From: Bacilli bacterium
Lineage (GTDB): Bacteria; Bacillota_I; Bacilli_A; RFN20; CAG-826
NCBI GenBank assembly: GCA_024695235.1
Contig: JAILIP010000009.1
Location: forward strand, 55,647-119,646
Direction of reading: 5' to 3'
DNA: 64,000 nucleotides
Each line of letters starts with the position of its first letter. The stretch's first letter is position 1. The position numbers and the translations under genes were made by a program. The notes below the pieces were generated by a model. That model searched no databases and was not told where the DNA came from. It saw nothing but the letters and a program-made list of their open reading frames with translations. Shown here one piece after another: positions 23,539 through 45,220 of the stretch.

Positions 23539-24684
23539 ATGAAAAATGTATTTATTATCGGTTCCAAAGGAATCCCTGCTAAGTATGGGGGATATGAAAC
23601 ATTCGTTGAATATCTTACCGCAAGAAAGATAAACAAAGACATCAAATACCATGTCGCTTGTTTAGCAAAAGACAATAACGAATTTGAACATAACGGAGCA
23701 AGATGCTTTAACGTTAAGGTTCCTAATATCGGTGCTGCTAAAGCCGTCTATTATGATATCTATGCTTTAAAAAGCATCATCAAATATGTCAAAGAAAATG
23801 ATATCAAGGATGCAATTGTTTTAATTCTTGCATGCCGTATTGGTATTGTCTTTAGAAAATATGTTAGAAAACTTCACGCCTTAGGTGTTGAAGTTATTGT
23901 TAATCCAGATGGTCATGAATGGAAAAGAAGTAAATGGCCATGGATTATCAAAAAATACTGGAAATATTCTGAACGCAGAATGATTAAATACACTGATAGA
24001 ATTATCTGTGACTCAGTCAACATCGAAAAATATATCCATGAAGAATATGGAAAATATAATCCAAAGACATCTTTTGTGGCCTATGGTTCGGATGTTGTTG
24101 AATTAAAGAAAAACACCGAACTATTCAAATCATGGGCCGAGAAGTTTGATCTTAAGAGTGATGAATACTATCTAGTCGTTGGTAGATTCGTTCCAGAAAA
24201 TAACTATGAGATGATGATCAAAGGCTATATGGCGTCAAACACTAAAAAGCCACTTGTTCTCATCACAAATGTTGAAAAGAACAAATTCTATGAACGTCTA
24301 CTCAAGTCCACTCAATTTGATAAAGATCCACGAGTGAAATTCGTTGGAACGGTATATGATCAAGCGTTGCTTCAAGAAATTAGATACAATGCTTTTGCAT
24401 ATATTCATGGTCATTCTGTTGGAGGCACAAACCCAAGCCTACTTGAAGGTCTTGCCTGCACCGATTTATCAATGCTATTTGATGTATCATTCAATCGTGA
24501 AGTTGGAGGAGATACAGCCCTTTACTTTGACTCAGCTGAATCGTTTACAAAACTCATTGAAGATTCTGAAAAACTAAGCAAAGAAGAAATCGCCAAATAT
24601 GCGAAGGCCTCAAGCCAGAGAATTAAAGACAATTATTCTTGGGAATCAATATGTTCAAAATACGAAGAGAGATTTTATGAGTAA
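23539..24684 (+). CDS. Glycosyltransferase with DUF1972-type N-terminus (rhamnosyltransferase-like)
   Basis: The N-terminus IIGSKGIPAKYGGYETFVE is characteristic of DUF1972/GT4 enzymes of rhamnose-polysaccharide loci, as recalled. It sits directly after rfbA. Confidence 0.7.
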   Translation: MKNVFIIGSKGIPAKYGGYETFVEYLTARKINKDIKYHVACLAKDNNEFEHNGARCFNVKVPNIGAAKAVYYDIYALKSIIKYVKENDIKDAIVLILACRIGIVFRKYVRKLHALGVEVIVNPDGHEWKRSKWPWIIKKYWKYSERRMIKYTDRIICDSVNIEKYIHEEYGKYNPKTSFVAYGSDVVELKKNTELFKSWAEKFDLKSDEYYLVVGRFVPENNYEMMIKGYMASNTKKPLVLITNVEKNKFYERLLKSTQFDKDPRVKFVGTVYDQALLQEIRYNAFAYIHGHSVGGTNPSLLEGLACTDLSMLFDVSFNREVGGDTALYFDSAESFTKLIEDSEKLSKEEIAKYAKASSQRIKDNYSWESICSKYEERFYE

Positions 24685-25813
24685 GAAAGTAATCCTAGTC
24701 GATCAAATCGCTAAAATAAGCTATAAGTATACATTCTCACTAGCAGAATGTCTAATTAAGCAAGGTGTTGATGTTCATCTAGTTTTAGACTTAAAAAAGA
24801 ATGATGAAGTAAATTGTAAAACTGATAGCATCTTCCTTACCGATGAGAAAAATGTCTCAAAAGTTAAGAAGGTTTTTAATCTCTTTTCTTCTTATAGAAG
24901 AATAAGACAAATTATCAAGGAAGAAAACATTGATATTCTTCACATTCAATGGATCAATTTCTCACCAATTGAATATCACCTTTTGAAGCGTATTGCTAAG
25001 AAGACAAAAATTGTCATGACAGTCCATGACATCCTTCCATTTAATGAGAAGGGATATGACAAACGTTATTATCGTAAGATTTATCATCTTCCAAGCAAAA
25101 TCATTGTCCAAGCAGACACAAACTACGATAGATTCAAAGAACTATTCCCAGAAGACATTGATAAAGTCACAATCATTCCTCACGGAAACTCCTTGAAGTA
25201 TGCTGATTTACATTCTCAAGATGAATCACGTGAAAAGATTGGCATCAATAAAGACTACTTCACTTTCCTCTTCTTCGGACAAATCAAGCAAATCAAAGGT
25301 GTTGATATTCTTCTAGAAGCCTTTGAAAAATTCCATCAAAATCATCCTGAATCACAACTTGTTGTAGCAGGTAAACTATGGTATGCCGAAGAAGGTGTCT
25401 ATGAAAAGATATTCAATAGAGATGGATATCCAAAAGAATTCCTTAAATGGGATGAACGTTTCATCGGTGATGAAGAAATTGGATATTACTACTCAGCTTG
25501 TGATGTCACAGTCCTTCCGTACAAAGATTTATATCAAAGTGGAGTTATCCAGCTTGCTTATGCATATAAGAAAGTTCCAATTGTTTCAAATCTAAAACCA
25601 TTCTTAGAAGTAGTGGACGAGAATTCTGGTTACATATTCGAAAACGAGAATGTTGACTCTTTAGTTGAGGCAATGGAAAAAGCATTCCAAAACAAAAAGA
25701 ACGCTGATAAACTCGTTGAAAACGGTATCAAGACGATTAAAGCTAAATACAATTGGGAAGATATCGCCAAAAAGATCATCGATGAATGTTACGATGAAAA
25801 AATACCCGAGTAA
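24677..25813 (+). CDS. GT4-family glycosyltransferase
   Basis: Start at ATG 24677 (MSKKVILVDQ...), overlapping the upstream stop by 8 nt. Two-Rossmann GT-B layout with FFGQIKQIKGVDILLEAF... in the C-terminal half. Confidence 0.7.
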   Translation: MSKKVILVDQIAKISYKYTFSLAECLIKQGVDVHLVLDLKKNDEVNCKTDSIFLTDEKNVSKVKKVFNLFSSYRRIRQIIKEENIDILHIQWINFSPIEYHLLKRIAKKTKIVMTVHDILPFNEKGYDKRYYRKIYHLPSKIIVQADTNYDRFKELFPEDIDKVTIIPHGNSLKYADLHSQDESREKIGINKDYFTFLFFGQIKQIKGVDILLEAFEKFHQNHPESQLVVAGKLWYAEEGVYEKIFNRDGYPKEFLKWDERFIGDEEIGYYYSACDVTVLPYKDLYQSGVIQLAYAYKKVPIVSNLKPFLEVVDENSGYIFENENVDSLVEAMEKAFQNKKNADKLVENGIKTIKAKYNWEDIAKKIIDECYDEKIPE

Positions 25814-27031: not shown

Positions 27032-27061
27032 TTGCAATAAATATAAACTTAGTTTTATAAT
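27032..27061 (+). promoter_or_regulatory. Strong sigma-70-type promoter TTGCAA-N18-TATAAT for the 27196 gene
   Basis: -35 at 27032-27037 and -10 at 27056-27061. This predicts a 5' UTR of approximately 128 nt. Confidence 0.55.
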
Positions 27062-27195: not shown

Positions 27196-27882
27196 ATGAA
27201 AAAATCAAAAATCGTCGTCCCAGCCGTTGCATTATTAGCTCTTGGTTTGGCCGCTTCTACAACTGCTACAGTTGCATGGTTCCAAGCAACATCAGCAGCT
27301 ACATTAACAGACAAATCAGCACCAGCAACAGTTAATGTTCAATCTTCTACTTATAGTGCAGGTGCATATTATGTTAAAGCAACTGCATCATTCTCACCAA
27401 GCGCAGCTCTTGATTATACTGATAAGAATGGCTCCACTTGGGTAATCGTTAATGGTTATTTAAGAACAGCCGCAGTTAAAAGTGCAAAATACGCATCAGT
27501 TACAATTGCAGTAAACTTCTATTCGAACGAAGCTTGTACACAAGCTGCTACTGTATCCGAACTCGCTGAAATTGGCGCCGCATTTAGTGGTTTAACAGTT
27601 ACAATCAACCCAGATGCAAACACAAGATTAACAACCAGTGATCCAAGTAGCAATTTTGCTACAGCTTTCGCTTCTAAATTGGATGTTAGTGATACGGTCA
27701 ATGTTACCTTAAGCTCTGCCGGCGCAGCTTCATATTCGAATAATACCCATTATGTCTCAGTTAATGGCGATGGTACAAGTGAAGTTGCAGATGCTCACGT
27801 TGATGGCGAAGCCGCCGCATCAGAATACACTACAGATGGCGGACTTACATTAACAATCGCTTCTACAGCAAGATCTGCTTAA
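27196..27882 (+). CDS. Small secreted Ala/Ser/Thr-rich protein with a SipW-cognate-like signal peptide; candidate major fibre subunit
   Basis: 228 aa. The sequence runs MKKSK, then a hydrophobic helix, then TATVAWFQATS. The mature part is A/S/T/V-rich with beta-strand-like alternation. SD AGAAAGGA lies upstream. The gene is monocistronic, with its own promoter and a strong terminator. Confidence 0.6.
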   Translation: MKKSKIVVPAVALLALGLAASTTATVAWFQATSAATLTDKSAPATVNVQSSTYSAGAYYVKATASFSPSAALDYTDKNGSTWVIVNGYLRTAAVKSAKYASVTIAVNFYSNEACTQAATVSELAEIGAAFSGLTVTINPDANTRLTTSDPSSNFATAFASKLDVSDTVNVTLSSAGAASYSNNTHYVSVNGDGTSEVADAHVDGEAAASEYTTDGGLTLTIASTARSA

Positions 27883-28032: not shown

Positions 28033-28407
28033 ATGAAACCATTAACAAAAAAGATTTTGATTTATAGTGGCCTTTCACTCGACATTATTGTCACTGTGTT
28101 TTTGTTTGTTTTATCAATCATAATGTTGGCCACAATGCCAGAAACATATCCTGGATTTGATATGAAAATGTATTATGAAAGCCATCCTGGTTTCATAACT
28201 TATTTGCAGGCAAATCCTACAGTATACTTATTAGCATGCGTCTTGCCTCTTGTTATTCTTTTGATTGGCAATATATTTTTACTTATTTTATTCATTAATA
28301 AAGCCGGAAAGAAAAAAGCGGCGTTGTCAGATTTATCAGAGGATCAAAAGGCTGCCCTTCGTGCTGAAATCCTTAAAGAAATGGATTCACCAGAAGAAAA
28401 GAAATAA
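28033..28407 (+). CDS. Small two-TM membrane protein with a charged C-terminal tail, unknown function
   Basis: Start at ATG 28033 (MKPLTKKILIYSG...), preceded by AGGTGG. It has two hydrophobic segments and the tail LSEDQKAALRAEILKEMDSPEEKK. Confidence 0.55.
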   Translation: MKPLTKKILIYSGLSLDIIVTVFLFVLSIIMLATMPETYPGFDMKMYYESHPGFITYLQANPTVYLLACVLPLVILLIGNIFLLILFINKAGKKKAALSDLSEDQKAALRAEILKEMDSPEEKK

Positions 28408-28426: not shown

Positions 28427-28450
28427 GCGAGCTCATACGGGCTCGCTTTT
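28427..28450 (+). terminator. Intrinsic terminator after the 28033 gene
   Basis: GCGAGCTC-atac-GGGCTCGC (8 bp, one G:T pair) followed by TTTT. Confidence 0.7.
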
Positions 28451-28515: not shown

Positions 28516-28521
28516 TAAATT

Positions 28522-28645
28522 AGCAAAAAGCAAAACCACAGTGATGTGGCGACGCAAAACTAAAGGGTCTTAATTAAGATAGCCAGTTGCCTAGAGGTTC
28601 TTATTGAACGCCACTAAATGGATGATAGGTAGCTGGCTTTTAAAA
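28522..28645 (+). promoter_or_regulatory. c-di-GMP-I (GEMM-I)-like riboswitch 1, aptamer plus terminator-type expression platform
   Basis: GCAAAACCACA-GUGA-UGUGGCGACGCAAAACUAAAGGGUCUUAAUUAAGAUAGCCAGUUGCC (28530-28591) has these features: a GNRA-capped hairpin, a GACGCAAA junction, a second hairpin with a CUAAAG/GAUAGCC receptor-like loop, and an AGCCAG-UUGCC closing. The 3' half (28581-28593) can instead pair with 28626-28638 in a 13-bp stem followed by UUUU. Confidence 0.7.
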
Positions 28646-28700: not shown

Positions 28701-29480
28701 ATGGTCGATTTAAGCTTTATTAGGAAACGTAAAGCTAAGAAAATCGTTGCACTAGTTGGCGGGTTATGTGGCGCTGCAGTAGTAGTTGTATCTGCTGTTG
28801 CCCTTTTGGGCCAAAGAGCCGCACCTTTAACTGTCAAGCTTACTAACAGTGGTGCATCATTAGCATTATTCAAGTCTGAATTCGAAAACGATCGTAAATC
28901 ATTCTTACTCGCTACTGATAGCAAACCATATACTGAAATAAGCGAACCCGCTTTACGCGCATATGAGAGCGTACTAGACGTGGATGATTCAAAACCTCTC
29001 CTCACATCGGATGAGCAATCACTCCAATTCTATCAATACACTTTCTATCTCACGAATAGTGGCGCAAGTGCAGCTGATTACACATTCAGCTTAAACATTT
29101 CCTATCCACACAGATCCAGCTTTGACTTAGCTGATGTTTTGCGTGTGCGCTTTTATGAGAATGACGGAAACGATAAGTTGACTCATAACTACAAGACTTA
29201 TGCCAAACACTCGGATATATATAATGCCGAAACAGGTGAATATGAACCTGAACGCATTTCTGGTAGTCAAAGTGAATTTGCTGAGAAGTTTGAAAATGCA
29301 AACACAGTTCTCACTCAAAACGTATCCGCTTTCCCTGCAGGAGCAGTCACACGTTACACAGTTGTCGTGTGGATTGAAGGTGAAGACCCACAAAGTAAAG
29401 GTCCAGCTCCAGTGGACTCTGGTATTGCTCTAGGAGTAAACATTAGTGCCCATGAAGCAGAGGAGACACCTCTCGAATAA
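28701..29480 (+). CDS. N-terminally TM-anchored or secreted beta-rich protein, TasA/camelysin-like candidate (paralogue group, WIEGEDP motif)
   Basis: 259 aa. A basic N-terminus is followed by the TM helix IVALVGGLCGAAVVVVSAVALLG, but with no AW[FY] motif. LTNSGAS occurs twice, like the N-G-S strand motif recalled from TasA. The C-terminal VVVWIEGEDP resembles VFVEGWDEH and QYIEGWDRD in the next two ORFs. Confidence 0.45.
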   Translation: MVDLSFIRKRKAKKIVALVGGLCGAAVVVVSAVALLGQRAAPLTVKLTNSGASLALFKSEFENDRKSFLLATDSKPYTEISEPALRAYESVLDVDDSKPLLTSDEQSLQFYQYTFYLTNSGASAADYTFSLNISYPHRSSFDLADVLRVRFYENDGNDKLTHNYKTYAKHSDIYNAETGEYEPERISGSQSEFAEKFENANTVLTQNVSAFPAGAVTRYTVVVWIEGEDPQSKGPAPVDSGIALGVNISAHEAEETPLE

Positions 29481-30495
29481 ATTATCTGCAACGCTTGCAG
29501 CGTCTATATTAGCCGTAGCACTCACAGGAGTTACCTGTGGGACTTTTGCTTGGTTTACGTACGAGACGCGCGCAAAGATTGAAGAATTTCAAGGAATTAC
29601 TATTGGAGTCGGTGATTTGCAAGTGGGTATTCTGTCAGAAGCATATTTAGATAGAGCTGAAGAATATGGTTTGATTAGAGATGAAAGTAATCCTAACGAA
29701 ACAATTTACTGGTTTGATGGTCATACCATGGAGAATGAAACAATTAACTATGTTTTAAGTTCAAACGGTTATGCCACAAATGCTTTGCATCCAGTAACTT
29801 CGCGTAAATATGTGACTGGTGATCCTCTCACCCTATATGCTGCTCCTGATTTTAAACCCGAAGAAGATGCCAAAGCATCAAAAGATGGTAGAATATTCTT
29901 GCCGTTAGTTTTTAAATACGAAGACATCATTGATGATAGTTTGATTTCAAATGAAAACATATTCCTGTCTGATGTAAAACTTTCAACGCCAAGCAGCGAT
30001 AGTTACATCCACAGGGCAGTTCGTGTTCATACGGATAACAAAAATAACAATCGTCATTTGATTAACCCAACAACAAGCGAAGATGGTTCTACTGGTGTTG
30101 GTGGTGTCTTAGATTTAAATAAAGACGGTTTTTATGATACCGAGGTTACAGGTAGCGACCTCCGAGAACATGTATATGGGCAAGCCGAGTTCCAATACAA
30201 AACTGAAGTAGAAACAGAGGACACTTTTGTTCCTATTGAACAAAGAACAACATTCAAAGCCGGGCATCTAGCAGGTGCCTATTCACTTGAATCGTGTACT
30301 CCTGAAAAAGCAGAGTATGAAGGTTTTTATGGCTTTAGGAATAAACGCAAATGGGTTGCAACTACAAATCCAGAGACGAACAACTATGCTTATCTAGACC
30401 TATCTGTATTTGTTGAAGGATGGGATGAACACGTCATCGATTCTGAACGAGATTTACCATTTTCCATGGAGTTGAAATTTGAAGTAGTATTCTAA
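29446..30495 (+). CDS. Secreted protein with a SipW-cognate-like signal peptide (paralogue A, DxNxDG loop, EGWD motif)
   Basis: The GTG at 29446 lies 9 nt after AGGAG; an alternative ATG is at 29452. The N-terminus is ...LAVALTGVTCGTFAWFTYETRA. It has GGVLDLNKDGFYD and ends with FVEGWDEH...SMELKFEVVF. Confidence 0.55.
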   Translation: MPMKQRRHLSNKLSATLAASILAVALTGVTCGTFAWFTYETRAKIEEFQGITIGVGDLQVGILSEAYLDRAEEYGLIRDESNPNETIYWFDGHTMENETINYVLSSNGYATNALHPVTSRKYVTGDPLTLYAAPDFKPEEDAKASKDGRIFLPLVFKYEDIIDDSLISNENIFLSDVKLSTPSSDSYIHRAVRVHTDNKNNNRHLINPTTSEDGSTGVGGVLDLNKDGFYDTEVTGSDLREHVYGQAEFQYKTEVETEDTFVPIEQRTTFKAGHLAGAYSLESCTPEKAEYEGFYGFRNKRKWVATTNPETNNYAYLDLSVFVEGWDEHVIDSERDLPFSMELKFEVVF

Positions 30496-30496
30496 A

Positions 30497-31561
30497 ATGA
30501 ATAAAAAACGTTTAGCAGCATTTGGAATAGCAATAACGGGTGTGATGTTAGTAGCATCTGTGGCTTTTACTGTTGCTTGGTACAATGGTTCATCTAATTT
30601 AGCAGTCTATAACTTCGACATTTCTCTAGGTGACAAGAAACTTACTATTTCCACAGATAATGTGAATTTCAAAGAAAACTTAACTAGAGATGATGTCAAA
30701 GACGCTATCCCGGAAAAATACAGGCCTGTTAGCAGTGCCTTCTCCAATGAATGGATAAGTCAAAAAGCAACCCTTCCGCAATTTACATCTGGTTACAACT
30801 ACATACCAGAAAAGGTGAATATGACATCAATTGATGATGTCAACAACGCTGATGATGGTGTATTCAGAAAAGTGTTATATCTCAAAAGTGATTCTTATGC
30901 AAAAGTATCTTTAGATGCAGAGAAAACTTACATTAACGCAGATAATGATTCAAATGAAAGCATTTCAGGAAAACTCAAAAAGGTATATCCAAACTTAACC
31001 AAAGAACAAATTGTGGAACAACTTAACAAAATTGAGAATTCACTTCGCTTCTCAATCCTTGTCTTAAATGATGATGGAAAAGAAGTTGATGATAGTGAAT
31101 ATCAATACACGATCGTGGATCCACATAAAAATGGAACCACAAAATTAGGTGGCATCTTGGATGCAGATGGCGACGGTTATTACGATAACGTCAATGGTAA
31201 AGAAGTCATTTATGGCGAAGTTAAAAACGCAAATGATGGAACCATCTCATATAAGAATGCTGAAGCAAACGATGTAGGGGAATCAGAGAATTGTTTTGAT
31301 TCCAAACATAAAGCCGGCGTCCAAGCCTTAGATTTTGAATCTTCAGAATCAAAAGGTATGGAAATAGTCGAAGAACACTCTTTATCCTTAGAGGAACTTA
31401 GTCAGTTCACCTTTACACTTCAGGCTGATGTCTCTAAGAAGATAGTGTTGTCCCAATATATTGAGGGTTGGGATAGAGATAGTGATAATTACACAATGTT
31501 TTCCCGTTTTGTCACTAGTATTTGTTTCAAACTAGCAGACGGGGGGAATGGAGGCAACTAA
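30497..31561 (+). CDS. Secreted protein with a SipW-cognate-like signal peptide (paralogue B, DxDxDG loop, EGWD motif)
   Basis: MNKKRLAAFGIAITGVMLVASVAFTVAWYNGSS, with GGILDADGDGYYD and YIEGWDRDSDNY...ICFKLAD. Its length and motif order match the 29446 ORF. Confidence 0.55.
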   Translation: MNKKRLAAFGIAITGVMLVASVAFTVAWYNGSSNLAVYNFDISLGDKKLTISTDNVNFKENLTRDDVKDAIPEKYRPVSSAFSNEWISQKATLPQFTSGYNYIPEKVNMTSIDDVNNADDGVFRKVLYLKSDSYAKVSLDAEKTYINADNDSNESISGKLKKVYPNLTKEQIVEQLNKIENSLRFSILVLNDDGKEVDDSEYQYTIVDPHKNGTTKLGGILDADGDGYYDNVNGKEVIYGEVKNANDGTISYKNAEANDVGESENCFDSKHKAGVQALDFESSESKGMEIVEEHSLSLEELSQFTFTLQADVSKKIVLSQYIEGWDRDSDNYTMFSRFVTSICFKLADGGNGGN

Positions 31562-31564
31562 AAT

Positions 31565-33091
31565 ATGTCAGCATATTTTCAATATTTAGGTGCAATGATT
31601 GTGGAATTTTTCAAAAACTTTGGAGGATTTTTTGCCGCAGGGTGGAAACTACTTCCAAGCCAATTTGAAAGATATAACGCAATATATAAAGCCTATTCAC
31701 CAGACTTTGGTGCTGGTGGATGGATAATGTGGGTTATTTTCCTCATTGTCTTTATAGGTGCAATTGGAGCACTCGGATTTGGAATTTATCTACTTCTCCG
31801 CAAATACATTAAATTTGCTAAGAAAGAAATTGAGAAGGATGAACTTCAAAGACAAATTGGTAGACTCAATTACGAGTTATATCAAATCATGCAAGAAAGA
31901 GATCGTATCTTAGATATGAAAGTTAAATCTCTTGGCATTGATAAAAAGATTGGACCAGAAGGAGAAGGTGGAGAGCCATCTGAAGATGAGCAAACAATCG
32001 AGGAACTTCAATCTAGATTCCCTAAATTAACTCACGTTGATAATCTCTATCGTGGAAAAGATAACGAAATTCCAGAAGTTGAAGGTCTCACATTAAAAGA
32101 TCTTTGTGAAAACTTCCGTAACTTCGCAGCATCTCAACTTGGTCTATACTATACCATCACAACTATCAGACAATTATTTGCTGGTATCGGTGCTGGTAAA
32201 CTCGTCATTCTCGAAGGTATTTCTGGTACAGGTAAAACTTCCTTACCATATGCTTTAGGTAAATTCTTTGCTCATGATGCTGAAATCTGTTCAGTTCAAC
32301 CTAACTGGAAAGATAGATCTGAACTTCTTGGTTACTACAACGAATTTACTAAGAAATTTAATGAATCCGAATTCTTACGCGCGCTATATACTACTTTATA
32401 TAGAAGAGATTTAAATATCATCGTCCTCGATGAAATGAACCTTGCCCGTGTTGAATATTACTTTGCTGAATTCTTATCCGTTTTGGAAATGCCTAATCCA
32501 AATGAATGGAACATTGAACTTATCGGTTCACATGATGAAAACGATCCAAAACAATTCAAGAATGGCAAAATCAAAATCCCTCAAAACGTTATCTTCTTTG
32601 GAACAGCCAATAACGATGACTCAACCTTTACAATCTCCGATAAGGTTTACGACCGTGCTATTTGCTTGTTCTTCGATAACAAAGGTATTCCATTTGAAGC
32701 TCCATTCCAAGCTCCAATGGTTGTACCATATACACAAATGCAAAGACTATTTGATGAAGCTGACGCCAAATATCCTTGCAGTGAAGATACATTAATGAAA
32801 TTTGCTGAACTAGACGACTTCGTTATTAAGAAATTCCGTCTTGCATTCGGTAACCGTATCTTAAAACAACTCAAGAAATTCGTTCCATGCTTTGTTGCCT
32901 GCGGTGGAACAGAACTTGACGCAATTGACTTTATCTTTACAAACAAGATTCTTAAGAAGTTTGAATCCCTTAACATCGGATTCTTGAAAGTAGAGCTCAA
33001 AGAGCTCAATGCTATGCTTGATAGACTTTTCGGAGCCGATAATTTCCCAATGGCTCACAAGTTTGTCAATAACTTAATTAGAATGGCTTAA
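31565..33091 (+). CDS. Membrane-anchored McrB-like AAA+ (AAA_5/dynein-related clade) NTPase
   Basis: It has one TM segment (WIMWVIFLIVFIGAIGALGFGIYLLL) followed by a basic stretch and a coiled coil. The NTPase core has Walker A GISGTGKTS, SVQPNWKDRSELLGYYN, Walker B plus signature IIVLDEMNLARVEYYFAEFLSVLE, and FFGTANNDDSTFTISDKVYDRA. SD GGAGG lies upstream. Confidence 0.65.
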   Translation: MSAYFQYLGAMIVEFFKNFGGFFAAGWKLLPSQFERYNAIYKAYSPDFGAGGWIMWVIFLIVFIGAIGALGFGIYLLLRKYIKFAKKEIEKDELQRQIGRLNYELYQIMQERDRILDMKVKSLGIDKKIGPEGEGGEPSEDEQTIEELQSRFPKLTHVDNLYRGKDNEIPEVEGLTLKDLCENFRNFAASQLGLYYTITTIRQLFAGIGAGKLVILEGISGTGKTSLPYALGKFFAHDAEICSVQPNWKDRSELLGYYNEFTKKFNESEFLRALYTTLYRRDLNIIVLDEMNLARVEYYFAEFLSVLEMPNPNEWNIELIGSHDENDPKQFKNGKIKIPQNVIFFGTANNDDSTFTISDKVYDRAICLFFDNKGIPFEAPFQAPMVVPYTQMQRLFDEADAKYPCSEDTLMKFAELDDFVIKKFRLAFGNRILKQLKKFVPCFVACGGTELDAIDFIFTNKILKKFESLNIGFLKVELKELNAMLDRLFGADNFPMAHKFVNNLIRMA

Positions 33092-33095
33092 TTAA

Positions 33096-35021
33096 ATGGC
33101 TAAACAATCATCAAGCAAATATCGAAAATTAGAAAGAAGCTATGCTTCAAAATCTAAAAAACTTTATTCATCAAATGATGGTAAAGAACTTTTAGATATC
33201 ATTTCTAGTGGTCGCAATAAGTATTTAAGATTAGATCGATTTGAATCATCCGCGATGGATATGACATGGATTAAACAAATCGAAGATTGTATTGATCCTT
33301 TAGGTGATATTGTTAATAACCCTAAAAAGACAATCCAAACTCTTACAGAGGTTGTACAAGTTGAGAAAGTCAAAAAGATTGGCATTGAAACAGTTCAACA
33401 TCTTTCAAGTCACACCCAATTTATTAAGACGATTGATGAAAATGGTGATGTCACTCCATCAAAACTTCTCAACGTCTACAATGATGACTTCTATGCGATT
33501 TATGAAAATAGATTCATTGCAACATTAATTCGCCATCTATTGATATTTGTTGAAAAACGTTATCAATTCGTTTTGCAAAACGCTACTCTATCTGACGTTG
33601 GAGTTCTTTATATGAAGAACCATACTGAACACGATGGAGCAGTCATCGATATTGAAACAAAAGTAAGATATTCACGTCCTGCTGAAGCAGTTGCTATTGA
33701 TAAACTAAAAGGATATCTCAAACGTATCGAAGATATTCGTAAATATCTAAAGTTCTATGCGAACACAGAATTTATGAAGATTCTCCGTCGTGAAAGAGAC
33801 GTCCGTAACCCAATCTTGCAGACAAACATTATTCGTAAGAACCCTAAGTATCATAAATGTTACTTACTCTGGCTATTTATCAATCGCTTTAAAGAAGCAG
33901 GAATTGAAGTTAAAGTCGAAGAAAACTATTCAGAACTTTCTGAAGAACAAATTCGTGAGATCAACGAAACTATGTGTTCATCGTTCCTCCTATTAAGAGG
34001 AAAAGACATGTCTCCTAGAACTGAAAAGTCCAAGAAGGCATATAAACCAGTCTTCATGAAGACATACGATGATGAAATCTATAAACCAATGGACTACAAA
34101 GGTCCAATTGAATATATCCGTGTTGATGATAAGTATCGCGAATACTCTGAATCTTTACATGTGGTTGAACCACACCCAACCAAGCAACGAAAAGCATACG
34201 ACAAAGAAAAATATGACGACAATAAAGCTCGTCGTGTTAAGAAAGCAGAGGTCGATGCTTTGCTAAAACGTAAAGAAAAAGAAAAAGCTATATATGAAGA
34301 GAACGAGAAACTTGCACTCGAACGCGAGATTGCGCGTGATAAATATGTAGAAGAAAAAGCAGAACAAGAAATCCGTGAAGAAGCTATTGCTAAAGTTGAA
34401 AAAGCACGTGAAAAACTTGTTGGTAAAGCTAATAAGGCTAAACCTGCTCCTAAGAAGAAAGTAGTAGAAAAGAAACAACCTAAGAAAGCTCCTGCCAAGA
34501 AGGCCGAACCTAAAAAGAAACCAGTCAAGAAGGCTGAGCCAAAGAAACAGCCTGTTGAAAAAGCAGAACCTAAGAAGGAAAAACCGGCTAAAAAAGTTGA
34601 GAAAAAAGTCGAAAAGAAGCCTGTTAAGAAGGTAGAGAAAAAGGTTGAACTAAAACCTGCTAAGAAGCCAGTTGTTCAAAAGAAAGAATCTAAACCAAAA
34701 GAGGCTCCTAAAAAAGCACCGGTAAAGAAGGAAACACCTAAAAAGGTGGCTAAACCAAAACCAGCGCCTAAAAAAGAAGAGCCAAAGAAGGTTGAAGAAC
34801 CAAAACCTAAGGTAGAAAAACCTGTTGAAGCTAAACCAGTTGAACCTGTCAAAGTGGTGGAACCTCCAAAAGAGGAAAAACCAGTTGAACAACCTAAACC
34901 GGTAGAAGCTCCGAAGGTTGAGCCAAAACCTGCTCCAAAGAAAGCTCCTAAACCAAAAGCGAAGAAAGAAAAACCTGAAACTTTCGCTAAGCTTTCATCA
35001 TTTAGAAGCAAGATTAAATAA
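33096..35021 (+). CDS. McrC/DUF2357-like partner protein lacking an obvious nuclease domain, with a coiled coil and a Lys/Pro-rich tail
   Basis: 641 aa with no TM segment. The central segment YAIYENRFIATLIRHLLIFVEKRY...NPKYHKCYLLWLFINRF resembles the ENRF-type core recalled from McrC-family partners of McrB-like NTPases. It is translationally coupled to the AAA+ gene (4-nt gap). The C-terminal approximately 230 aa are low complexity. Confidence 0.45.
   Translation: MAKQSSSKYRKLERSYASKSKKLYSSNDGKELLDIISSGRNKYLRLDRFESSAMDMTWIKQIEDCIDPLGDIVNNPKKTIQTLTEVVQVEKVKKIGIETVQHLSSHTQFIKTIDENGDVTPSKLLNVYNDDFYAIYENRFIATLIRHLLIFVEKRYQFVLQNATLSDVGVLYMKNHTEHDGAVIDIETKVRYSRPAEAVAIDKLKGYLKRIEDIRKYLKFYANTEFMKILRRERDVRNPILQTNIIRKNPKYHKCYLLWLFINRFKEAGIEVKVEENYSELSEEQIREINETMCSSFLLLRGKDMSPRTEKSKKAYKPVFMKTYDDEIYKPMDYKGPIEYIRVDDKYREYSESLHVVEPHPTKQRKAYDKEKYDDNKARRVKKAEVDALLKRKEKEKAIYEENEKLALEREIARDKYVEEKAEQEIREEAIAKVEKAREKLVGKANKAKPAPKKKVVEKKQPKKAPAKKAEPKKKPVKKAEPKKQPVEKAEPKKEKPAKKVEKKVEKKPVKKVEKKVELKPAKKPVVQKKESKPKEAPKKAPVKKETPKKVAKPKPAPKKEEPKKVEEPKPKVEKPVEAKPVEPVKVVEPPKEEKPVEQPKPVEAPKVEPKPAPKKAPKPKAKKEKPETFAKLSSFRSKIK
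34435..34980 (+). repeat. Lys/Pro/Glu/Val-rich low-complexity coding repeats (imperfect KKxEPKK / PKxxEKPVE units)
   Basis: The translated tail reads KPAPKKKVVEKKQPKKAPAKKAEPKKKPVKKAEPKKQPVEKAEPKKEKPAKKVEKKVEKKPVKKVEKKVELKPAKKP...EPKPKVEKPVEAKPVEPVKVVEPPKEEKPVEQPKPVEAPKVEPKPAPKKAPKPKAKK. The spurious antisense ORFs at 34094-35011 are by-products of this composition. Confidence 0.85.
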
Positions 35022-35026
35022 ATTAT

Positions 35027-35794
35027 ATGAGTGAGGAAAAATTAGAAGTAGTCGATAAACCAAAAAAAGACAAAAGCAAAGGTAAGAAGATTAAATCCAT
35101 TGTTGAATGGACCATTATTGGAATCTTCATTAGTGCTGCGTTAGTCTTGGTAGGTTTTAAGATTTACTCAAGCAAGACAAACAAGTCAATGTTTGGTTCA
35201 CAATATCCAGTCGTTCTTACTGACTCAATGGAACCAGACTACAAGGTTAAAGACGTATTGGTAGTAAAAGAAGTTGATCCCGCAGTACTTAAAGAAGGCG
35301 ATGATGTTACCTTCTATTGGGATTTAACTGGTAAAGGTGATGTTTATCCGATGACCCATAGGGTCAAGTCCATTGAATACTTCGCAAATGCCGAAGAAAA
35401 CGATGGATATCACTATACAATCATCACTCATGGTATCAATACCAAATCAAACCAATGTGGTAAGCCTGAAGGATGCGACATGACGTGGCAAACTCAAACA
35501 TTTCACGAAGATGCCCTCATTGGAAAAGTGGTTAGAAAAAGTTGGTTCTTGAAATTTGTTACTTCTGTTTGGGGATTGATTCTTTTAATTCTTCTGCCGT
35601 GTCTATACATCATGACTACAACTGTTGTAGATGCGTTCAAGAAGCTTGAAGAAGCCGATAAAGAAGCAGAACTTACTACTGTGGGCGTTGGAGAAAAACC
35701 AGATAATGATCCACTTGCAGGACTATCTGAAAATGATATTGAAGCCCTTAAGAAACAGATGCTTGATGAGATGTTAAATAAAGGAAAGAAATAG
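35027..35794 (+). CDS. SipW-like (archaeal/ER-type, S26B) signal peptidase I
   Basis: It has an N-terminal TM segment, the catalytic Ser box VVLTDSMEP, the His box PMTHRV, and a C-terminal TM segment (VWGLILLILLPCLYIMTTTVV). This is the same architecture as B. subtilis SipW as recalled (LSGSMEP/THRI), plus N- and C-terminal charged extensions. Confidence 0.75.
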   Translation: MSEEKLEVVDKPKKDKSKGKKIKSIVEWTIIGIFISAALVLVGFKIYSSKTNKSMFGSQYPVVLTDSMEPDYKVKDVLVVKEVDPAVLKEGDDVTFYWDLTGKGDVYPMTHRVKSIEYFANAEENDGYHYTIITHGINTKSNQCGKPEGCDMTWQTQTFHEDALIGKVVRKSWFLKFVTSVWGLILLILLPCLYIMTTTVVDAFKKLEEADKEAELTTVGVGEKPDNDPLAGLSENDIEALKKQMLDEMLNKGKK

Positions 35795-41308: not shown

Positions 41309-41324
41309 ATACTTGAACTTGATA

Positions 41325-41412
41325 AAGGCAAAACTACAGTGATGTAGTGACGCAAAGCTAAAGGGTCTTGATTAAGATAGCCAGTTGCCAATAATGGTGA
41401 CTGGCTTTTAAA
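41325..41412 (+). promoter_or_regulatory. c-di-GMP-I (GEMM-I)-like riboswitch 2, aptamer plus terminator-type expression platform
   Basis: GGCAAAACUACA-GUGA-UGUAGUGACGCAAAGCUAAAGGGUCUUGAUUAAGAUAGCCAGUUGCC (41327-41389). GGCAA/UUGCC closes P1. 57 of 63 positions are identical to copy 1, with one compensatory C-G to U-A change in the GNRA hairpin. 41379-41390 can alternatively pair with 41395-41406 (12 bp, loop AUAA) followed by UUUU. Confidence 0.75.
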
Positions 41413-41437: not shown

Positions 41438-44400
41438 ATGAATCGTTTCCAAAAAAGAATAATGATCATCGCTGCAGCAATCTGCAATGTTTCGCTTACC
41501 CTTACAGCAGCTGGTGTTGCAACATATGCTTGGTTTAAAGCTAAAGCAAATCTTGTAGCCGTTTCAAATAATCTCTCAATCAGTGTTGCCGACCCTGATG
41601 AAAAATTTGAATATGACATTTATAAATATGATGATAACCTTAAGGCTGGCAAAAAATTTACTGATCCTAGTGATTTTACCTTGCCTGATTATGATACATA
41701 CATCACCGAGAAAAACGTTTACGCGAACTGCATCATACGCGCTGAAGTCACAGTCCCCTCATTAAATACATCCGATGAGTATTTCACCATTGATGTCACA
41801 AGACTTGCTTCAAACTACTTCATTACAAGTACAACAAAGGTTGATAAAAAGACATCTAATGTTATTCAATTAAAATCTGCTGTCTATTCTTTCTTAGAAA
41901 GTGGCGAAACCGATTTTACAGAAAACACTAATATGATTGGACACGGAGATATTGACGAAACCTCTCCTGCGACAATCTATTCAACTGTCAGTGACTATTT
42001 TGCCACTAAACAAACTCCAACAACATTCGTTCCTATTAGATATGATGATAATGGTAATCCTATTGTTAATCGTGGAGATGACGAGAACAAAAGAACCATT
42101 ACCCTTATTCCAGACTTACCTACAGGTTATACAATCACAAAGGTAATTATCTATCTCGAATGTTCTTATCACGAAGATTTAGTTGATAAGTATGTTGAGT
42201 CTAATTCTACAGATTCTGCTGCAACAAAATATGCACTTCAAGGCGATGTTTCGTCAATTGTTTTTTCACATAAAGAAAAAGTTGCAAAAACATCACAAGC
42301 AACTGGTAAATACATTAAGGTAGAATCTACTGCTGCTTTAGCTAACGGTCAGTATTTGCACGCGTACGAGACGGATGAATCCACAGGCGCCGCAAAACTT
42401 ATGAAGGGTAGTTTAGCAACCAGTGATAAAGCTGCTACCAACCCATCCGGAATCTTTGTAGCAGATAACATTAGAGATGCAACGATAAACTCACTACCAT
42501 CCAACGAGCCAAAATCAATTGACACCACCGACGCCATTGATAGTGATGCATTTGCTTACACTAAAAAGAGTGGTGAAAATTCTATAAATACATTTAAGTC
42601 AAAAGCTGGTTACTACATTGGTAACGATACCCAATCTAATGGTATTGCGACTAACGATGACTATGCCAATGGTTACAAACACCAAATTACTTTCAGTGGA
42701 GATCATGCAAACGTTGATGCTTATGGTACTGGCTCAAACAACATGAGATTAGGATACTATACATCTGGAAATGGCAGATTCTATTATCAAAAGGATTCTG
42801 GAAAACAAACAGACCTGTTTAGATATACCGAAAACGTTGCAGAAATGCCCACATTAACCGGTATAGAAATTACAACTGCAACAACTGCCACCTCATTCTA
42901 CACATCACAAAAATTTGCTATTACTAATTTAGTTGTAACAGCCACCTATTCCAATGACTCATCTGCAATAGTTACGAAGTCATGTACTTTCACTTCAGAT
43001 ACCGATCCAGCTACACTAGTGCCTGGCACTACTACTTTGAGCACTGTGACCCAATCAAAGAATATTTATGTCAGTTATTCTGAAGGCGGAGTAACGATTA
43101 ATGGTGAAGGTGTAGCTGCTTTAACATACACAATTAGTGTTGCTCAAGATGAACTAAATTCAATTTCTGCAACTGCTCCAACCAAATCTTATTATTTTGT
43201 CAATGAAGAGTTTTCATCAGCAGGCATGACTGTTACCGCTCATTATAAATCTGGCAATCCTGTCAACATTGAATTAAATAATCCTAATTTAACAATTACT
43301 GCTCCTAGCATGTCATCAGTTAGTGATCCATCTGTTAATGTCTCATATACTGATGGAGTTACAAAATCTACTACTGTTACAATTCACATTGTCGCAAGGT
43401 ACTTAAGCATCAATAAGAACAGTGCATCTGTTGCAGAGGGCGGAGATGTAACAATCACTGTAGATCATAATCAGGATGTCACAATCACAAATACTCCTGG
43501 AACTGGAACTGTTTCCTTAAATCCTAGTTCAATTGAGTACACAGGAACAAATAAGGCTAGAACAACCACTGATGTAACGGTTCATGGCGAGACAGCTGGC
43601 ACCGTAACTCTCACATTTTCTTCCAGTGGATGTTCACCTGTTTCATGCAATATTACTGTTACCGCTACACCTGCTGATGTGATTACTATGACCGCAGATG
43701 AAGTCATCACCGATTCGGGTTATAAGGCATATGCTACAAACATTTCAAAGGATTACAATGGTACAGGAAGTGAATCAAAAGGATGGCTTGTAACATTTGG
43801 CGGAAATAACTACACATTTGGTACAAATAATAATGCTACCAATTTTGATAATTGTAATTTGTCTTCGTATGACAAGTATGCTGTCAGTACAGTGGCAACT
43901 ACTTCAGAAACCGCTGCTGCGTTTGCAAATACGAGCGTGATGCACAAGATTAGGAATATCTCGTTCACATGTACTGGTGGTACAAATTTGAACACAACAA
44001 CCGCATATATAATCTATTCTGCTGATAATATTACTTTTTCAAAACCAACATTAGCTTCCGGTTCTACATCACAAGGTACTACTGTGACTTCTGGAACAAC
44101 GTATACCTTTAAATTTAATTCGGCATTGGCCGGATATTTTGCGATTGTATTTAAATCAAGTCTTTCTAGCGTTGGCAACTGGAAGATAGAGGGCCTATCT
44201 GTAACTTACAACCCTAAAGCTCTTGATCATATCGCTATCACTGGAGATGTTTCGAATAAATCTTACACAAGTGGACAATCGTTAAATATGTCAGGTTTAG
44301 TTGTTACAGCGTATTACACAGATAATACAAACGAAGTTGTAACAGGAAGTGCAACATTAACCTCTTCTGTAGATCCATTAACCACTGGTACTACATCAGT

Positions 44401-45220
44401 TACTGTTACTGCTTCTTACACATTCGGCAGCTCTACAGAGACGGCGACTAAGAGCGTTACTGGTTTAACAGTTACAGCACCGTCGACGCTAATAACTGCA
44501 ATTACTTTAACTGCTGCAAGTTCATCAATTGTAGCTGGGAATACTACAACAGTTACAATTGGAATTACACCAAGCAGCGCTTCGTCACAAAATATTACAG
44601 TCACTTTAACTGCTGGCGGCGGAACATATGGTAGATTTGATAATTCGACCGGCAGCACAACAACAAAAGATGTTCAATGTAGTAGTGGTTCTGGCTCGTT
44701 TACTGTTTATGGTGTTGCAGCTGGTTCATTCAAACTTCAAGCTGCAGCAAATGATGGATCTAGTATAACTTCCAATCAAATCACTATTACAGTTACCGCT
44801 CCATCCAGTATTACATTCACAACTAATAGATCTAATCTATCGCCAACTTGGTCTTCCTCTGGTACGTATACCGTTACTTCAAGCGGTGAGACTATAACGT
44901 TTAGTAATTTGACTGCATCCAGCAATAGTGATATTCAAATGGCAAAGAATTCCACAGCAACTAGTACTGAATTCTCAGGAAATATTTCTCAAATCATATT
45001 GTATGGTTGTGCACATACAGGTTCTAAGAGCGATGGTTCATTTACTGTTAGCGGTAGTGCGAATGGATCGTCGTGGACAGAGGTGTACTCAATTTCAAAT
45101 ATGAGTCCTTCTCAAGGAAACATCACTATTTCAGTTTCTTCGGGGTATAAGTATTTTAAAGTTACAGTTGGCAGCTCACGTGTCCTTAAGATTACTGGAA
45201 TTAAGGTTACATATTCATAA
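41438..45220 (+). CDS. Giant secreted adhesin-like protein with a SipW-cognate-like signal peptide, Ig-like repeats and two jelly-roll/CBM-like modules
   Basis: 1260 aa, N-terminus MNRFQKRIMIIAAAICNVSLTLTAAGVATYAWFKAKANL. It has repeated Ig-like units of the type L(T/D).I.(I/A)T...K.(Y/F)....(F/L)...G(L/M).VTA.Y and Big_2-like units (SASVAEGGDVTITV; IVAGNTTTVTIGITPSSAS). It has no LPXTG, no C-terminal TM segment and no lipobox. SD AAAGG lies upstream. Confidence 0.75.
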   Translation: MNRFQKRIMIIAAAICNVSLTLTAAGVATYAWFKAKANLVAVSNNLSISVADPDEKFEYDIYKYDDNLKAGKKFTDPSDFTLPDYDTYITEKNVYANCIIRAEVTVPSLNTSDEYFTIDVTRLASNYFITSTTKVDKKTSNVIQLKSAVYSFLESGETDFTENTNMIGHGDIDETSPATIYSTVSDYFATKQTPTTFVPIRYDDNGNPIVNRGDDENKRTITLIPDLPTGYTITKVIIYLECSYHEDLVDKYVESNSTDSAATKYALQGDVSSIVFSHKEKVAKTSQATGKYIKVESTAALANGQYLHAYETDESTGAAKLMKGSLATSDKAATNPSGIFVADNIRDATINSLPSNEPKSIDTTDAIDSDAFAYTKKSGENSINTFKSKAGYYIGNDTQSNGIATNDDYANGYKHQITFSGDHANVDAYGTGSNNMRLGYYTSGNGRFYYQKDSGKQTDLFRYTENVAEMPTLTGIEITTATTATSFYTSQKFAITNLVVTATYSNDSSAIVTKSCTFTSDTDPATLVPGTTTLSTVTQSKNIYVSYSEGGVTINGEGVAALTYTISVAQDELNSISATAPTKSYYFVNEEFSSAGMTVTAHYKSGNPVNIELNNPNLTITAPSMSSVSDPSVNVSYTDGVTKSTTVTIHIVARYLSINKNSASVAEGGDVTITVDHNQDVTITNTPGTGTVSLNPSSIEYTGTNKARTTTDVTVHGETAGTVTLTFSSSGCSPVSCNITVTATPADVITMTADEVITDSGYKAYATNISKDYNGTGSESKGWLVTFGGNNYTFGTNNNATNFDNCNLSSYDKYAVSTVATTSETAAAFANTSVMHKIRNISFTCTGGTNLNTTTAYIIYSADNITFSKPTLASGSTSQGTTVTSGTTYTFKFNSALAGYFAIVFKSSLSSVGNWKIEGLSVTYNPKALDHIAITGDVSNKSYTSGQSLNMSGLVVTAYYTDNTNEVVTGSATLTSSVDPLTTGTTSVTVTASYTFGSSTETATKSVTGLTVTAPSTLITAITLTAASSSIVAGNTTTVTIGITPSSASSQNITVTLTAGGGTYGRFDNSTGSTTTKDVQCSSGSGSFTVYGVAAGSFKLQAAANDGSSITSNQITITVTAPSSITFTTNRSNLSPTWSSSGTYTVTSSGETITFSNLTASSNSDIQMAKNSTATSTEFSGNISQIILYGCAHTGSKSDGSFTVSGSANGSSWTEVYSISNMSPSQGNITISVSSGYKYFKVTVGSSRVLKITGIKVTYS

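Follow-up and report, generated by a model that had tools for sequence, protein, structure and literature searches.

A conserved ER/archaeal-type peptidase gene and candidate substrates with a putative T-x-A/W-[F/Y] site in uncultured Bacilli

Dedicated SipW-type peptidases are an entry point to TasA-like matrix fibres. In the tapA-sipW-tasA operon of Bacillus subtilis, as in sipW-tasA-calY of B. cereus and sipW-bsaABC of C. perfringens, the gene of an ER-type peptidase lies among those of its own exported matrix proteins, and the locus described here is arranged likewise. The TasA site has Trp at P2 and Phe at P2′; its cleavage needs SipW, LepB cuts it poorly, and an aromatic P2′ is reported to hinder LepB-type enzymes (PMC10269814). 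In mature TasA the donor strand comes first, starting at residue 28 (PMC9674648). A passage of PMC8767453 that cites Tjalsma 2000 reports the box-E Asp106 of SipW as essential. In a second described arrangement, CoCoPALM, a membrane-tethered coiled-coil McrB-like GTPase and a partner stand beside a signal-peptidase-family gene in Bacillota (Bell, Makarova, Wolf and Koonin, eLife 2024, PMC11090510). That paper names the arrangement in one paragraph and defers its analysis, describing no cargo, site, Asp-less active site or c-di-GMP control. In the literature searched, we found no later paper on CoCoPALM and no description of either the Asp-less active site or the T-x-A/W-[F/Y] site motif.

The window analysed here is a stretch of 64,000 nucleotides from an uncultured Bacilli bacterium. 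An earlier note on its sequence had proposed a SipW-like peptidase with five candidate cognate substrates that share an AW(F/Y) motif, and all of the open reading frames it listed exist (Table 1). The proposed pairing is supported by the S26B-like sequence and predicted fold of the peptidase, its invariant Ser and His, synteny, co-occurrence and the LepB-type genes of related genomes. We consider it likely, judging from these sequence comparisons, that a dedicated accessory peptidase of ER/archaeal type cuts five co-regulated proteins (families A, C, D, E and F) at T-x-A/W-[F/Y].

Table 1. Features of the locus, in window coordinates; the slash in a predicted site marks the predicted cut.
Feature	Coordinates	Strand	Motif (nt)	Predicted site	Basis
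Cargo family A, 228 aa, Ala/Ser/Thr-rich	27196..27882	+	TATVAWF (TVAWF at 27268-27282)	TVA27/W28F, cut after nt 27276	
Small, conserved two-helix membrane protein, ~124 aa; gene lies between families A and B	28033..28407	+			
c-di-GMP-I riboswitch aptamer	28519..28594	+			RF01051, 57.7 bits
Family B, 259 aa; N-terminal membrane helix without AW[FY]	28701..29480	+			
Cargo family C, 349 aa; gene call begins at 29452	29446..30495	+	CGTFAWF (GTFAWF at 29539-29556)	TFA35/W36F, cut after nt 29550	
Cargo family D, 354 aa, paralogue of C	30497..31561	+	FTVAWY (30566-30583)	TVA27/W28Y, cut after nt 30577	
Putative McrB-like AAA_5 NTPase, membrane-tethered	31565..33091	+			AAA_5 E 2.9e-4 (weak), TM helix
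Partner protein, 641 aa, Lys/Pro/Glu-rich tail	33096..35021	+			Synteny
Signal peptidase, divergent ER/archaeal-type (S26B-like), 255 aa	35027..35794	+			Profile, conservation, AlphaFold, Foldseek
Second c-di-GMP-I-type riboswitch aptamer, before two giant cargo genes	41318..41393	+			RF03167, 60.7 bits
Cargo family E, 1260 aa, Big_3 repeats	41438..45220	+	ATYAWF (41519-41536)	TYA31/W32F, cut after nt 41530	
Cargo family F, 1296 aa	45232..49122	+	GTVAWY (45313-45330)	TVA31/W32Y, cut after nt 45324	

By sequence and modelled fold, the peptidase is of the ER/archaeal type. The Ser box TDSMEP, the His box THRV and the transmembrane segments at both ends, all read from the letters by the earlier note, were located as described: in the translation Ser67 lies inside VVLTDSMEPDYKV and His111 inside PMTHRVKS, and there is one hydrophobic helix per end. 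The AlphaFold model (pLDDT 81.6) has helices at residues 18-51 and 181-219 that flank a beta core (77-171), followed by a tail helix (235-252). Along the chain, an N-terminal TM helix thus precedes the extracytoplasmic beta core, which carries Ser67 and His111; a second TM helix follows towards the C-terminus, and then a cytoplasmic tail of 55 residues (DPLAGLSE..LKKQMLDEML) that is near-invariant among homologues. A profile of the peptidase family matches human SEC11A (E 7e-5), with Ser67 on Ser56 and His111 on His96. Foldseek searches with the model returned SEC11C (9e-5) and SEC11A (1.3e-4) as best PDB matches, ahead of SipA, SpsB and LepB, the top entries being 7p2q_A and 7p2p_A with probability 1.00. 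Across 121 homologues, a set that reaches down to ~27% identity, His111 is kept in every sequence and Ser67 in 120, the remaining one having a gap. The assignment to an S26B architecture like that of SipW holds as regards sequence, fold and the invariant residues, with a Ser nucleophile box, a His where P-type enzymes have Lys, and a beta-core fold with membrane anchors; but the box-E Asp (G-D-N) is absent, the scores fall below the curated cut-offs of TIGR02228 (44 bits, E 1.9e-11; cut-off 51.85) and of the SipW model NF046067 (42.9 bits, E 3.9e-11; cut-off 190), and Pfam Peptidase_S26 and S24 give no match at E up to 10. At 50% identity, the branch of the peptidase falls into about 120 clusters; its distant relatives number more than 10,000.

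In 119 of the 121 homologues, box-E G-D-N is replaced by G-I-N. The Ile (Ile137 here), whose equivalence is based on spacing and on the SEC11A profile alignment, aligns with D116 of SEC11A, and the position of SEC11A D122 is variable in the family. Conserved acidic residues among these homologues are Asp66, Asp93 and Glu161. More distant peptidases from the same type of operon keep R-G-D-N, and in a rough regex sorting of 144 representatives, many of them unclassified, Ile dominates the top scorers and Asp is found among weaker scorers. A family that keeps Ser and His and has dropped the Asp considered essential in SipW and Sec11 bears on the catalytic mechanism of ER-type signal peptidases.

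All five AW(F/Y) motifs are present at the edge of the N-terminal helix, although the earlier coordinates for the 30497 protein (30565-30582) were one base off. Each is preceded by a K/R-rich start and then a hydrophobic stretch of 15-20 residues. The whole 0.99-Mb assembly has 1026 ORFs of 100 aa or more, in which AW[FY] occurs 13 times, and the five occurrences that lie at residues 26-34 after a hydrophobic helix belong to exactly the five genes of the locus. For the 27196 protein, the predicted cut would give a mature N-terminal peptide WFQATSAATLTDK. From 41 sites in 14 loci, a set that includes the orthologues in 12 related loci and one further locus, we obtained the site logo G/S-T-[VFY]-A / W-[FY] (cut at the slash): P3 is Thr in 38, P1 is Ala, P1′ is Trp in 40 and Tyr in one, and P2′ is Phe or Tyr in all. 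Family E orthologues retain ATYAWF, and those of family F have SCVAWF.

The Trp had been taken for a lineage-specific twist on the GT[FWY]A[AFY]F pattern. Kinship with that pattern is borne out by deeper homologues of the 29446 family, which have CGTFAYY, and by one related locus (L015) in which CGTFAYY occurs alongside TVAWY with one peptidase of the same type, which points to interchange of Trp and Tyr. A narrow lineage specificity does not stand, however: at least 25 genera of the order have the Trp form, alongside peptidases of the G-I-N as well as the G-D-N type. Scoring of the N-termini with the TIGR04088 HMM, proposed as a check, did not bring them above threshold; the best value was 12.4 bits (27196, E 0.14) against a cut-off of 19, the 27196 N-terminus was the only one in the window's set to score at all, and 34 full-length family C members received no score. 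What the locus does have in the manner of TIGR04088 is a predicted site of the G-T-[aromatic]-A-[Y/A]-F type at the end of the hydrophobic core, beside a SipW-type peptidase gene.

The riboswitch at 28519 stands at the head of an operon with the genes of families B, C and D, of the putative GTPase pair and of the peptidase. Family A, a candidate major subunit, has its own transcription unit, with a promoter-like site at 27032-27061 and a terminator-like site at 28427-28446. The cytoplasmic C-tail of the small membrane protein encoded at 28033, LSDLSEDQKAALRAEILKEM, resembles the tail of the peptidase. The McrB-like gene is syntenic in all related loci, and its product matches the PADLOC model PDC-M26A (E 6.6e-40), a candidate-cluster model that is uninformative. 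Directly upstream of the peptidase gene, at a conserved position, lies the gene of the partner protein, for which NCBIfam-type HMMs, Pfam and PADLOC gave no family match.

Families C and D match each other with a probability of 98.6% (hhalign). The AlphaFold model of family C (pLDDT 82) is beta-rich and has no PDB match with E <0.1 in Foldseek, TasA not being listed; no cargo protein matches Pfam Peptidase_M73 (TasA/camelysin), and no PDB sequence relative was found with profiles A5 and A3. On these grounds, we do not class the cargo as TasA-like. Family B has an invariant segment, A-[IV]-A-LLGQ[RK]AAPLT, at the position where the others have AW[FY], and carries the shared C-terminal W-[IL]-E-G-x-D motif. 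It had been suggested that this protein, having a TM helix without the motif, stays anchored in the manner of TapA; helix and missing motif are as described, and anchoring is favoured by the cytoplasmic N-extension of 45-65 residues in its relatives, but nothing indicates a TapA-like role. Family B is probably a true signal-anchor (base) protein.

A scan with an 8-sequence alignment identified 12 related MAG loci, in which the operon is fully syntenic, motif-bearing genes included. Among 301 genomes of the order, 52 have both peptidase and cargo, five the peptidase only, two the cargo only and 242 neither (Fisher 6.5e-50, not corrected for phylogeny). At a looser cargo threshold (E <= 1e-8), some genomes appeared to have cargo without peptidase; in the three that we examined, from genera g20 and g25, a more divergent peptidase lies at the same operon position, and the apparent absence was due to the E-value threshold. 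These divergent peptidases keep G-D-N and accompany T-[FY]-A-W-F cargo.

In the mechanism that we propose, families A, C, D, E and F would be exported by Sec with the N-terminal helix in the membrane, and the peptidase would cut at G/S-T-[V/F/Y]-A / W-[F/Y], with small residues at P3 and P1 before the cut and two aromatics after it. The released subunits would have an N-terminal strand that begins with Trp and, on the analogy of TasA, might serve as donor strand for the assembly of a surface fibre or matrix, while family B is probably the base that remains in the membrane. Because the family C model has no TasA-like fold by Foldseek and no cargo protein matches Peptidase_M73, the donor-strand idea is an analogy only. 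What we infer in this scheme is that the cargo is cut, where exactly the cut falls, that the subunits assemble by donor strands, and any part played by the putative McrB-like GTPase pair. The reported hindrance of LepB-type enzymes by an aromatic P2′ would account for the presence of a private peptidase beside this cargo.

The peptidase might instead be the organism's general type I signal peptidase, its substrates owing their shared motif to common ancestry as paralogues. The window's own assembly has no LepB gene, and families C and D are indeed paralogous; but the completeness of that assembly is only 69.6%, and the site is shared by families A, E and F, whose mature regions show no detectable similarity to C and D. 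Each of the 24 other same-genus genomes searched has a gene of the LepB type (TIGR02227), from which we infer a housekeeping enzyme of this type in the window's own strain. Strong matches to the peptidase of the locus occur in nine of 25 same-genus genomes, the window's own included (eight of the 24 others). Because the LepB-type genes are present in every one of these 24 genomes and the peptidase is patchy, we reject this reading as highly improbable; the same 24 LepB-type genes suggest that the peptidase is accessory and probably dedicated. An accessory peptidase could still be an inactive or altered homologue that helps to assemble or chaperone the surface proteins, comparable to SipA/LepA of the pili of Streptococcus pyogenes, with a LepB-type enzyme removing the signal peptides. 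Such a role would agree with the Ile that occupies the place of the SipW-essential Asp, with SipA (4n31) as third structural match of the model (E 0.035), and with the wording of Bell et al. 2024, who call the CoCoPALM peptidases 'likely pilus assembly factors' (PMC11090510). SipW, moreover, has a second, non-proteolytic role via its cytoplasmic tail (PMC8767453), and the tail of the present peptidase is longer and near-invariant. We nevertheless regard this reading as improbable: a pseudo-enzyme would be expected to drift, whereas Ser67 and His111 are invariant down to ~27% identity, relatives in the same position keep G-D-N and serve T-[FY]-A-W-F cargo, and the aromatic P2′ disfavours cleavage by LepB-type enzymes (PMC10269814).

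A different possibility concerns the motif rather than the enzyme. AW[FY] could be a membrane-interface or recognition element of an anchor helix that is retained, so that the proteins stay tethered and the peptidase processes something else or a subset, for example family B. The signal region of family A is 72% identical among orthologues and the mature part 21%, the pattern of an N-terminal helix that keeps a function; Trp and Tyr typically sit at the membrane interface; the giant proteins E and F have no visible sortase motif or other anchor; and in a cell whose wall is reduced, tethering would be apt. Against this, T-x-A has invariant small residues at P3 and P1, in keeping with the rule for signal peptidases and with the TasA site (PMC10269814); over the 301 genomes, the motif goes with the peptidase; and family B, the sole true signal-anchor candidate, is exactly the one that lacks the motif. 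Retention of the helices is, on balance, quite improbable.

With cleavage at T-x-A/W-[F/Y] by a dedicated peptidase as the preferred reading, a more far-reaching picture can be drawn, which is speculative and in our view doubtful as a whole. The signal, the Asp-less Ser/His peptidase and the McrB-like GTPase pair might together constitute a new kind of surface-fibre machine of reduced gut Bacilli, switched by c-di-GMP, in which Trp donor strands would link base B, adaptors C and D, the fast-evolving major subunit A and the giant adhesins E and F, and cleavage would be coupled to the GTPase through the cytoplasmic tail that the small membrane protein shares with the peptidase. For practical purposes, T-x-A/W-[F/Y] offers a testable, conserved, putative substrate rule for a large unannotated branch of enzymes. 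Pfam and NCBIfam annotate neither peptidase nor cargo in uncultured rumen and gut Bacilli, and the motif is a simple finder for the surface proteome of these bacteria. The locus may also supply the missing cargo side of CoCoPALM clusters.

The arrangement of genes in the window may be that of CoCoPALM, with conserved adjacency, a weak AAA_5 match (E 2.9e-4) at 31565 and a partner without family match. SEC11A/C and the archaeal signal peptidase I (S26B; TIGR02228) give the best profile and structural matches of the peptidase; in contrast to SEC11A, both box-E Asp positions (D116, D122) are non-acidic or variable, and unlike SEC11 and the archaeal enzymes, the peptidase has an extra C-terminal TM helix with a 55-residue cytoplasmic tail and stands alone with a private, putative substrate set. 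SipA/LepA of S. pyogenes, also a homologue of signal peptidases, is the product of a surface-fibre operon. SipA is a P-type protein that is not known to have the catalytic residues, whereas the present family keeps Ser and His invariant.

With tapA-sipW-tasA, the locus has in common the Ser/His centre and TM helices at both ends of the peptidase, the tail of SipW being functional, and a site pattern of Thr at P3, Ala at P1 and an aromatic P2′ (T-W-A/A-F in TasA); the biofilm or matrix context of SipW is counted among the shared features. It differs in having Trp at P1′, where TasA has Ala and the TIGR04088 consensus Tyr, and G-I-N where SipW has G-D-N. Its cargo is not recognisably similar to TasA/camelysin by HMM (all proteins) or by Foldseek (family C model) and comprises five or six families, two of them with proteins of about 1300 aa. 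Riboswitches for c-di-GMP exert the control here and SinR does so in B. subtilis, and here a putative McrB-like GTPase pair lies inside the operon. By analogy, then, the locus can be read as a variation, conserved but unstudied, on the biofilm-fibre theme of TasA/SipW in an uncultured gut or rumen bacterium with a small genome.

The open reading frame that the earlier note had called an ER/archaeal S26B-type, SipW-like peptidase encodes 255 aa. Its translation has the expected Ser box (VVLTDSMEPDYKV around Ser67), His box (PMTHRVKS around His111) and hydrophobic helix at each end. The nearest NCBIfam model is TIGR02228 (archaeal-type signal peptidase I; 44 bits, E 1.9e-11, under its cut-off of 51.85), followed by the Bacillus SipW model NF046067 (42.9 bits against a cut-off of 190), and Pfam gave no S26/S24 domain match even at E up to 10. 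A word-indexed search returned 120 homologous clusters, nearly all unnamed metagenome proteins. A 17-homologue profile matches human SEC11A (7p2p_A, E 7e-5), pairing Ser67 with Ser56, His111 with His96 and the family's G-I-N-T with G-D-N-N in box E, an active-site motif. In the AlphaFold model (71 input sequences, pLDDT 81.6), long helices at the N-terminus (18-51) and at residues 181-219 flank a beta core (77-171), and a short helix (235-252) forms the tail; SEC11C (E 9e-5) and SEC11A (1.3e-4) lead its PDB matches, ahead of S. pyogenes SipA, SpsB and LepB at E 0.03 or weaker. Among 121 aligned homologues, His111 and Thr110 occur in all, Ser67 in 120 (the remaining one has a gap), and position 137 is Ile in 119. 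PMC8767453, citing Tjalsma 2000, reports that SipW requires Ser47, His87 and Asp106, and by spacing and the SEC11A alignment this Asp106 would be the counterpart of the G-D-N Asp. Because of the HMM, profile and model matches and the conserved Ser/His pair, the protein is, in both sequence and fold, an ER-type signal peptidase; the S26B assignment falls short at the box-E Asp, replaced by Ile137, and at the curated HMM cut-offs.

The Asp-to-Ile change appears to be a derived trait of this peptidase subfamily (122 representatives at E up to 1e-30, out of 10,995 at E up to 1e-3), because more distant peptidases at the same operon position retain R-G-D-N and, among representatives at 50% identity, Ile predominates in the top scorers with Asp confined to weaker ones. 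In one same-genus genome the orthologous frame contains two in-frame TGA codons: the gene there may be a pseudogene, the codons may stem from a sequencing error, or that genome may translate TGA; unlike that frame, the window reads cleanly under table 11.

All ORFs named earlier are present, and translation bears out five AW[F/Y] motifs at the end of N-terminal hydrophobic helices, although the coordinates proposed for the motif of the 30497 protein, unlike the other four, were shifted by one base. Each motif comes straight after a K/R-rich start and a hydrophobic core of 15-20 residues. The window (C22:55647-119646) belongs to a 0.99-Mb assembly of 33 contigs (69.6% complete), in which AW[FY] occurs 13 times among the 1026 ORFs of 100 aa or more. 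Just five of these motifs come after an N-terminal hydrophobic helix, and they are those of the five candidate substrate (cargo) genes; this concentration is not chance. Scoring the N-termini with TIGR04088, as had been proposed, placed none at or above cut-off.

Locations of the features discussed
Feature	Location	Remarks
Glycosyltransferase genes (GT4/GT1)	24599-25813 and upstream	directly upstream of GGDEF gene
Family A cargo	27196-27882	TATVAWF
Small membrane protein	28033-28407	two helices
c-di-GMP-I riboswitch	28519-28594	standard RF01051 type; heads operon with peptidase
Family B	28701	membrane helix
Family C cargo	29446	CGTFAWF
Family D cargo	30497	FTVAWY
AAA_5 protein	31565-33091	membrane-tethered, McrB-like NTPase
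Lys-rich partner	33096-35021	Lys/Pro/Glu-rich tail
Peptidase	35027-35794 (+)	G-I-N box E
c-di-GMP-I-type riboswitch	41318-41393	best as c-di-GMP-I-GGC variant (RF03167, 60.7 bits); heads two giant genes
Family E cargo	41438	ATYAWF
Family F cargo	45232	GTVAWY
R-G-D-N peptidases, reduced operons	L017:4922-5725; L018:5258-6067; L019:2304-3485 (minus strand)	
Family B-like, reduced operons	L017:10904-11857; L018:10869-11828; L019:11254-12336 (minus strand)	
Peptidase frame with two TGA codons	G004:C82:6392-7147	same-genus genome

A logo of 41 cargo N-termini (from the window, 12 related loci and a further locus, L015) has G, S or A at P4, T at P3 in 38, V, F, Y or I at P2, A at P1, W at P1' in 40 with Y in one, and F or Y about equally at P2'. 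Deeper family C homologues carry CGTFAYY. Since L015 combines such a protein with a TVAWY-bearing family D protein and one G-I-N-type peptidase, Trp and Tyr at P1' are interchangeable inside one system.

The same operon recurs in 12 of 12 related loci (rumen, buffalo and horse-gut MAGs labelled uncultured Bacilli or Erysipelotrichaceae), in the order family A, small membrane protein, families B, C and D, AAA_5 protein, Lys-rich protein, peptidase, EAL protein, PNP_UDP_1-like protein, EAL protein of ~1015 aa and, where the contig extends far enough, giant proteins. In the window, the genes for family A and for the small membrane protein make up a transcription unit of their own, apart from the peptidase operon. 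A GGDEF gene lies upstream of the locus, and from the adjoining glycosyltransferase genes a polysaccharide locus may therefore border this protein-fibre locus. Despite its setting in a surface-protein operon, the AAA_5 protein hits PDC-M26A, a candidate-defence model of PADLOC (E 6.6e-40); it has GTANNDDS near residue 350.

Of 41 close relatives, 10 gave a strong peptidase match. Family C/D cargo was found in 11: in those 10, on the same contig as the peptidase and a few kb from it, and in one fragmented genome whose cargo gene sits at a contig end. Across 301 genomes sampled from the order, at E up to 1e-30, the peptidase occurs in 57 (23 genera) and cargo in 54 (52 both, 5 peptidase only, 2 cargo only, 242 neither; Fisher's test 6.5e-50, uncorrected for phylogeny). 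Weaker matches add 27 cargo-only genomes, mostly from two genera. The three inspected (L017-L019) all encode a divergent G-D-N-type peptidase in a reduced operon (A-like, small membrane protein, B-like, D-like, GTPase, partner, peptidase; no family C) with T-[FY]-A-W-F cargo. Because these pair a G-D-N enzyme with the same site, the enzyme-site link is, on comparative sequence grounds, general across this order and independent of the Asp-to-Ile change.

Cargo families C and D proved to be paralogues (98.6% probability in hhalign), and family B shares with them only a C-terminal W-[IL]-E-G-x-D. Family A is highly divergent: its orthologues are 72% identical in the signal region and 21% in the mature part, the opposite of ordinary signal peptides, which suggests strict leader recognition with a fast-evolving exposed subunit. 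The cargo has no Peptidase_M73 (Pfam) match and its profiles no PDB sequence relatives, and a beta-rich AlphaFold model of a family C member (pLDDT 82) has no PDB match at E below 0.1; the cargo is therefore not classed as TasA-like. Residues 41-53 of that model, the first strand past the predicted cut, have low confidence and are compatible with a donor strand. Family B, as noted earlier, lacks T-x-A-W-[FY]; the equivalent position is occupied by a segment, A-[IV]-A-L-L-G-Q-[RK]-A-A-P-L-T, that is invariant. Its suggested retention in the membrane is reasonable: reduced-operon relatives carry a charged, cytoplasmic N-extension of 45-65 residues ahead of the membrane helix, which looks like an uncleaved signal anchor, and F-L-G-[KR]-V-S-G after it.

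The small membrane protein and peptidase residues 229-252 have a common cytoplasmic tail motif, L-x-[DG]-L-S-E-x-[DQ]-K-x-x-L-[KR]-x-x-[IM]-L-x-E-M, kept in related loci (L003-L012). The peptidase tail is near-invariant across the 121 homologues, and the shared motif may be a common docking peptide. The cytoplasmic tail of SipW has a separate signalling role (PMC8767453).

We consider the following mechanism the most likely, with a good degree of probability: the five cargo proteins would be exported by Sec, the dedicated Ser/His peptidase would cleave past T-x-A, and the cargo would be freed with W-[F/Y] at its N-terminus, a site that the LepB-type housekeeping enzyme would handle poorly. By analogy, the strand at the newly formed N-terminus could drive assembly into a fibre, for which family B would be the base. 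The missing box-E Asp would also fit a non-proteolytic assembly factor, against which the invariant Ser and His speak; the AW[FY] motif could alternatively be part of a retained anchor. Were the peptidase itself the general housekeeping enzyme, the LepB distribution would be hard to explain: each of the 24 further genomes of the genus that were searched has a TIGR02227 peptidase, and for that reason the lack of one in the window's own assembly is most likely incompleteness.

In the literature searched we found neither the Trp-type site rule nor the non-TasA cargo set, nor an Asp-less active site of the G-I-N kind with a G-D-N sister group. Already known are SipW-type peptidases with private cargo and the CoCoPALM gene arrangement named by Bell et al. 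(PMC11090510), on which we found no later literature; the AAA_5 protein and its partner, encoded immediately before the peptidase, fit that arrangement. SipW cuts TasA at T-W-A|A-F, where the P2 Trp and P2' Phe hinder LepB (PMC10269814), and mature TasA starts at residue 28, with residues 28-38 as the fibre donor strand (PMC9674648). The cargo site shares with that of TasA the P3 Thr, P1 Ala and aromatic P2', but differs by its Trp at P1'.
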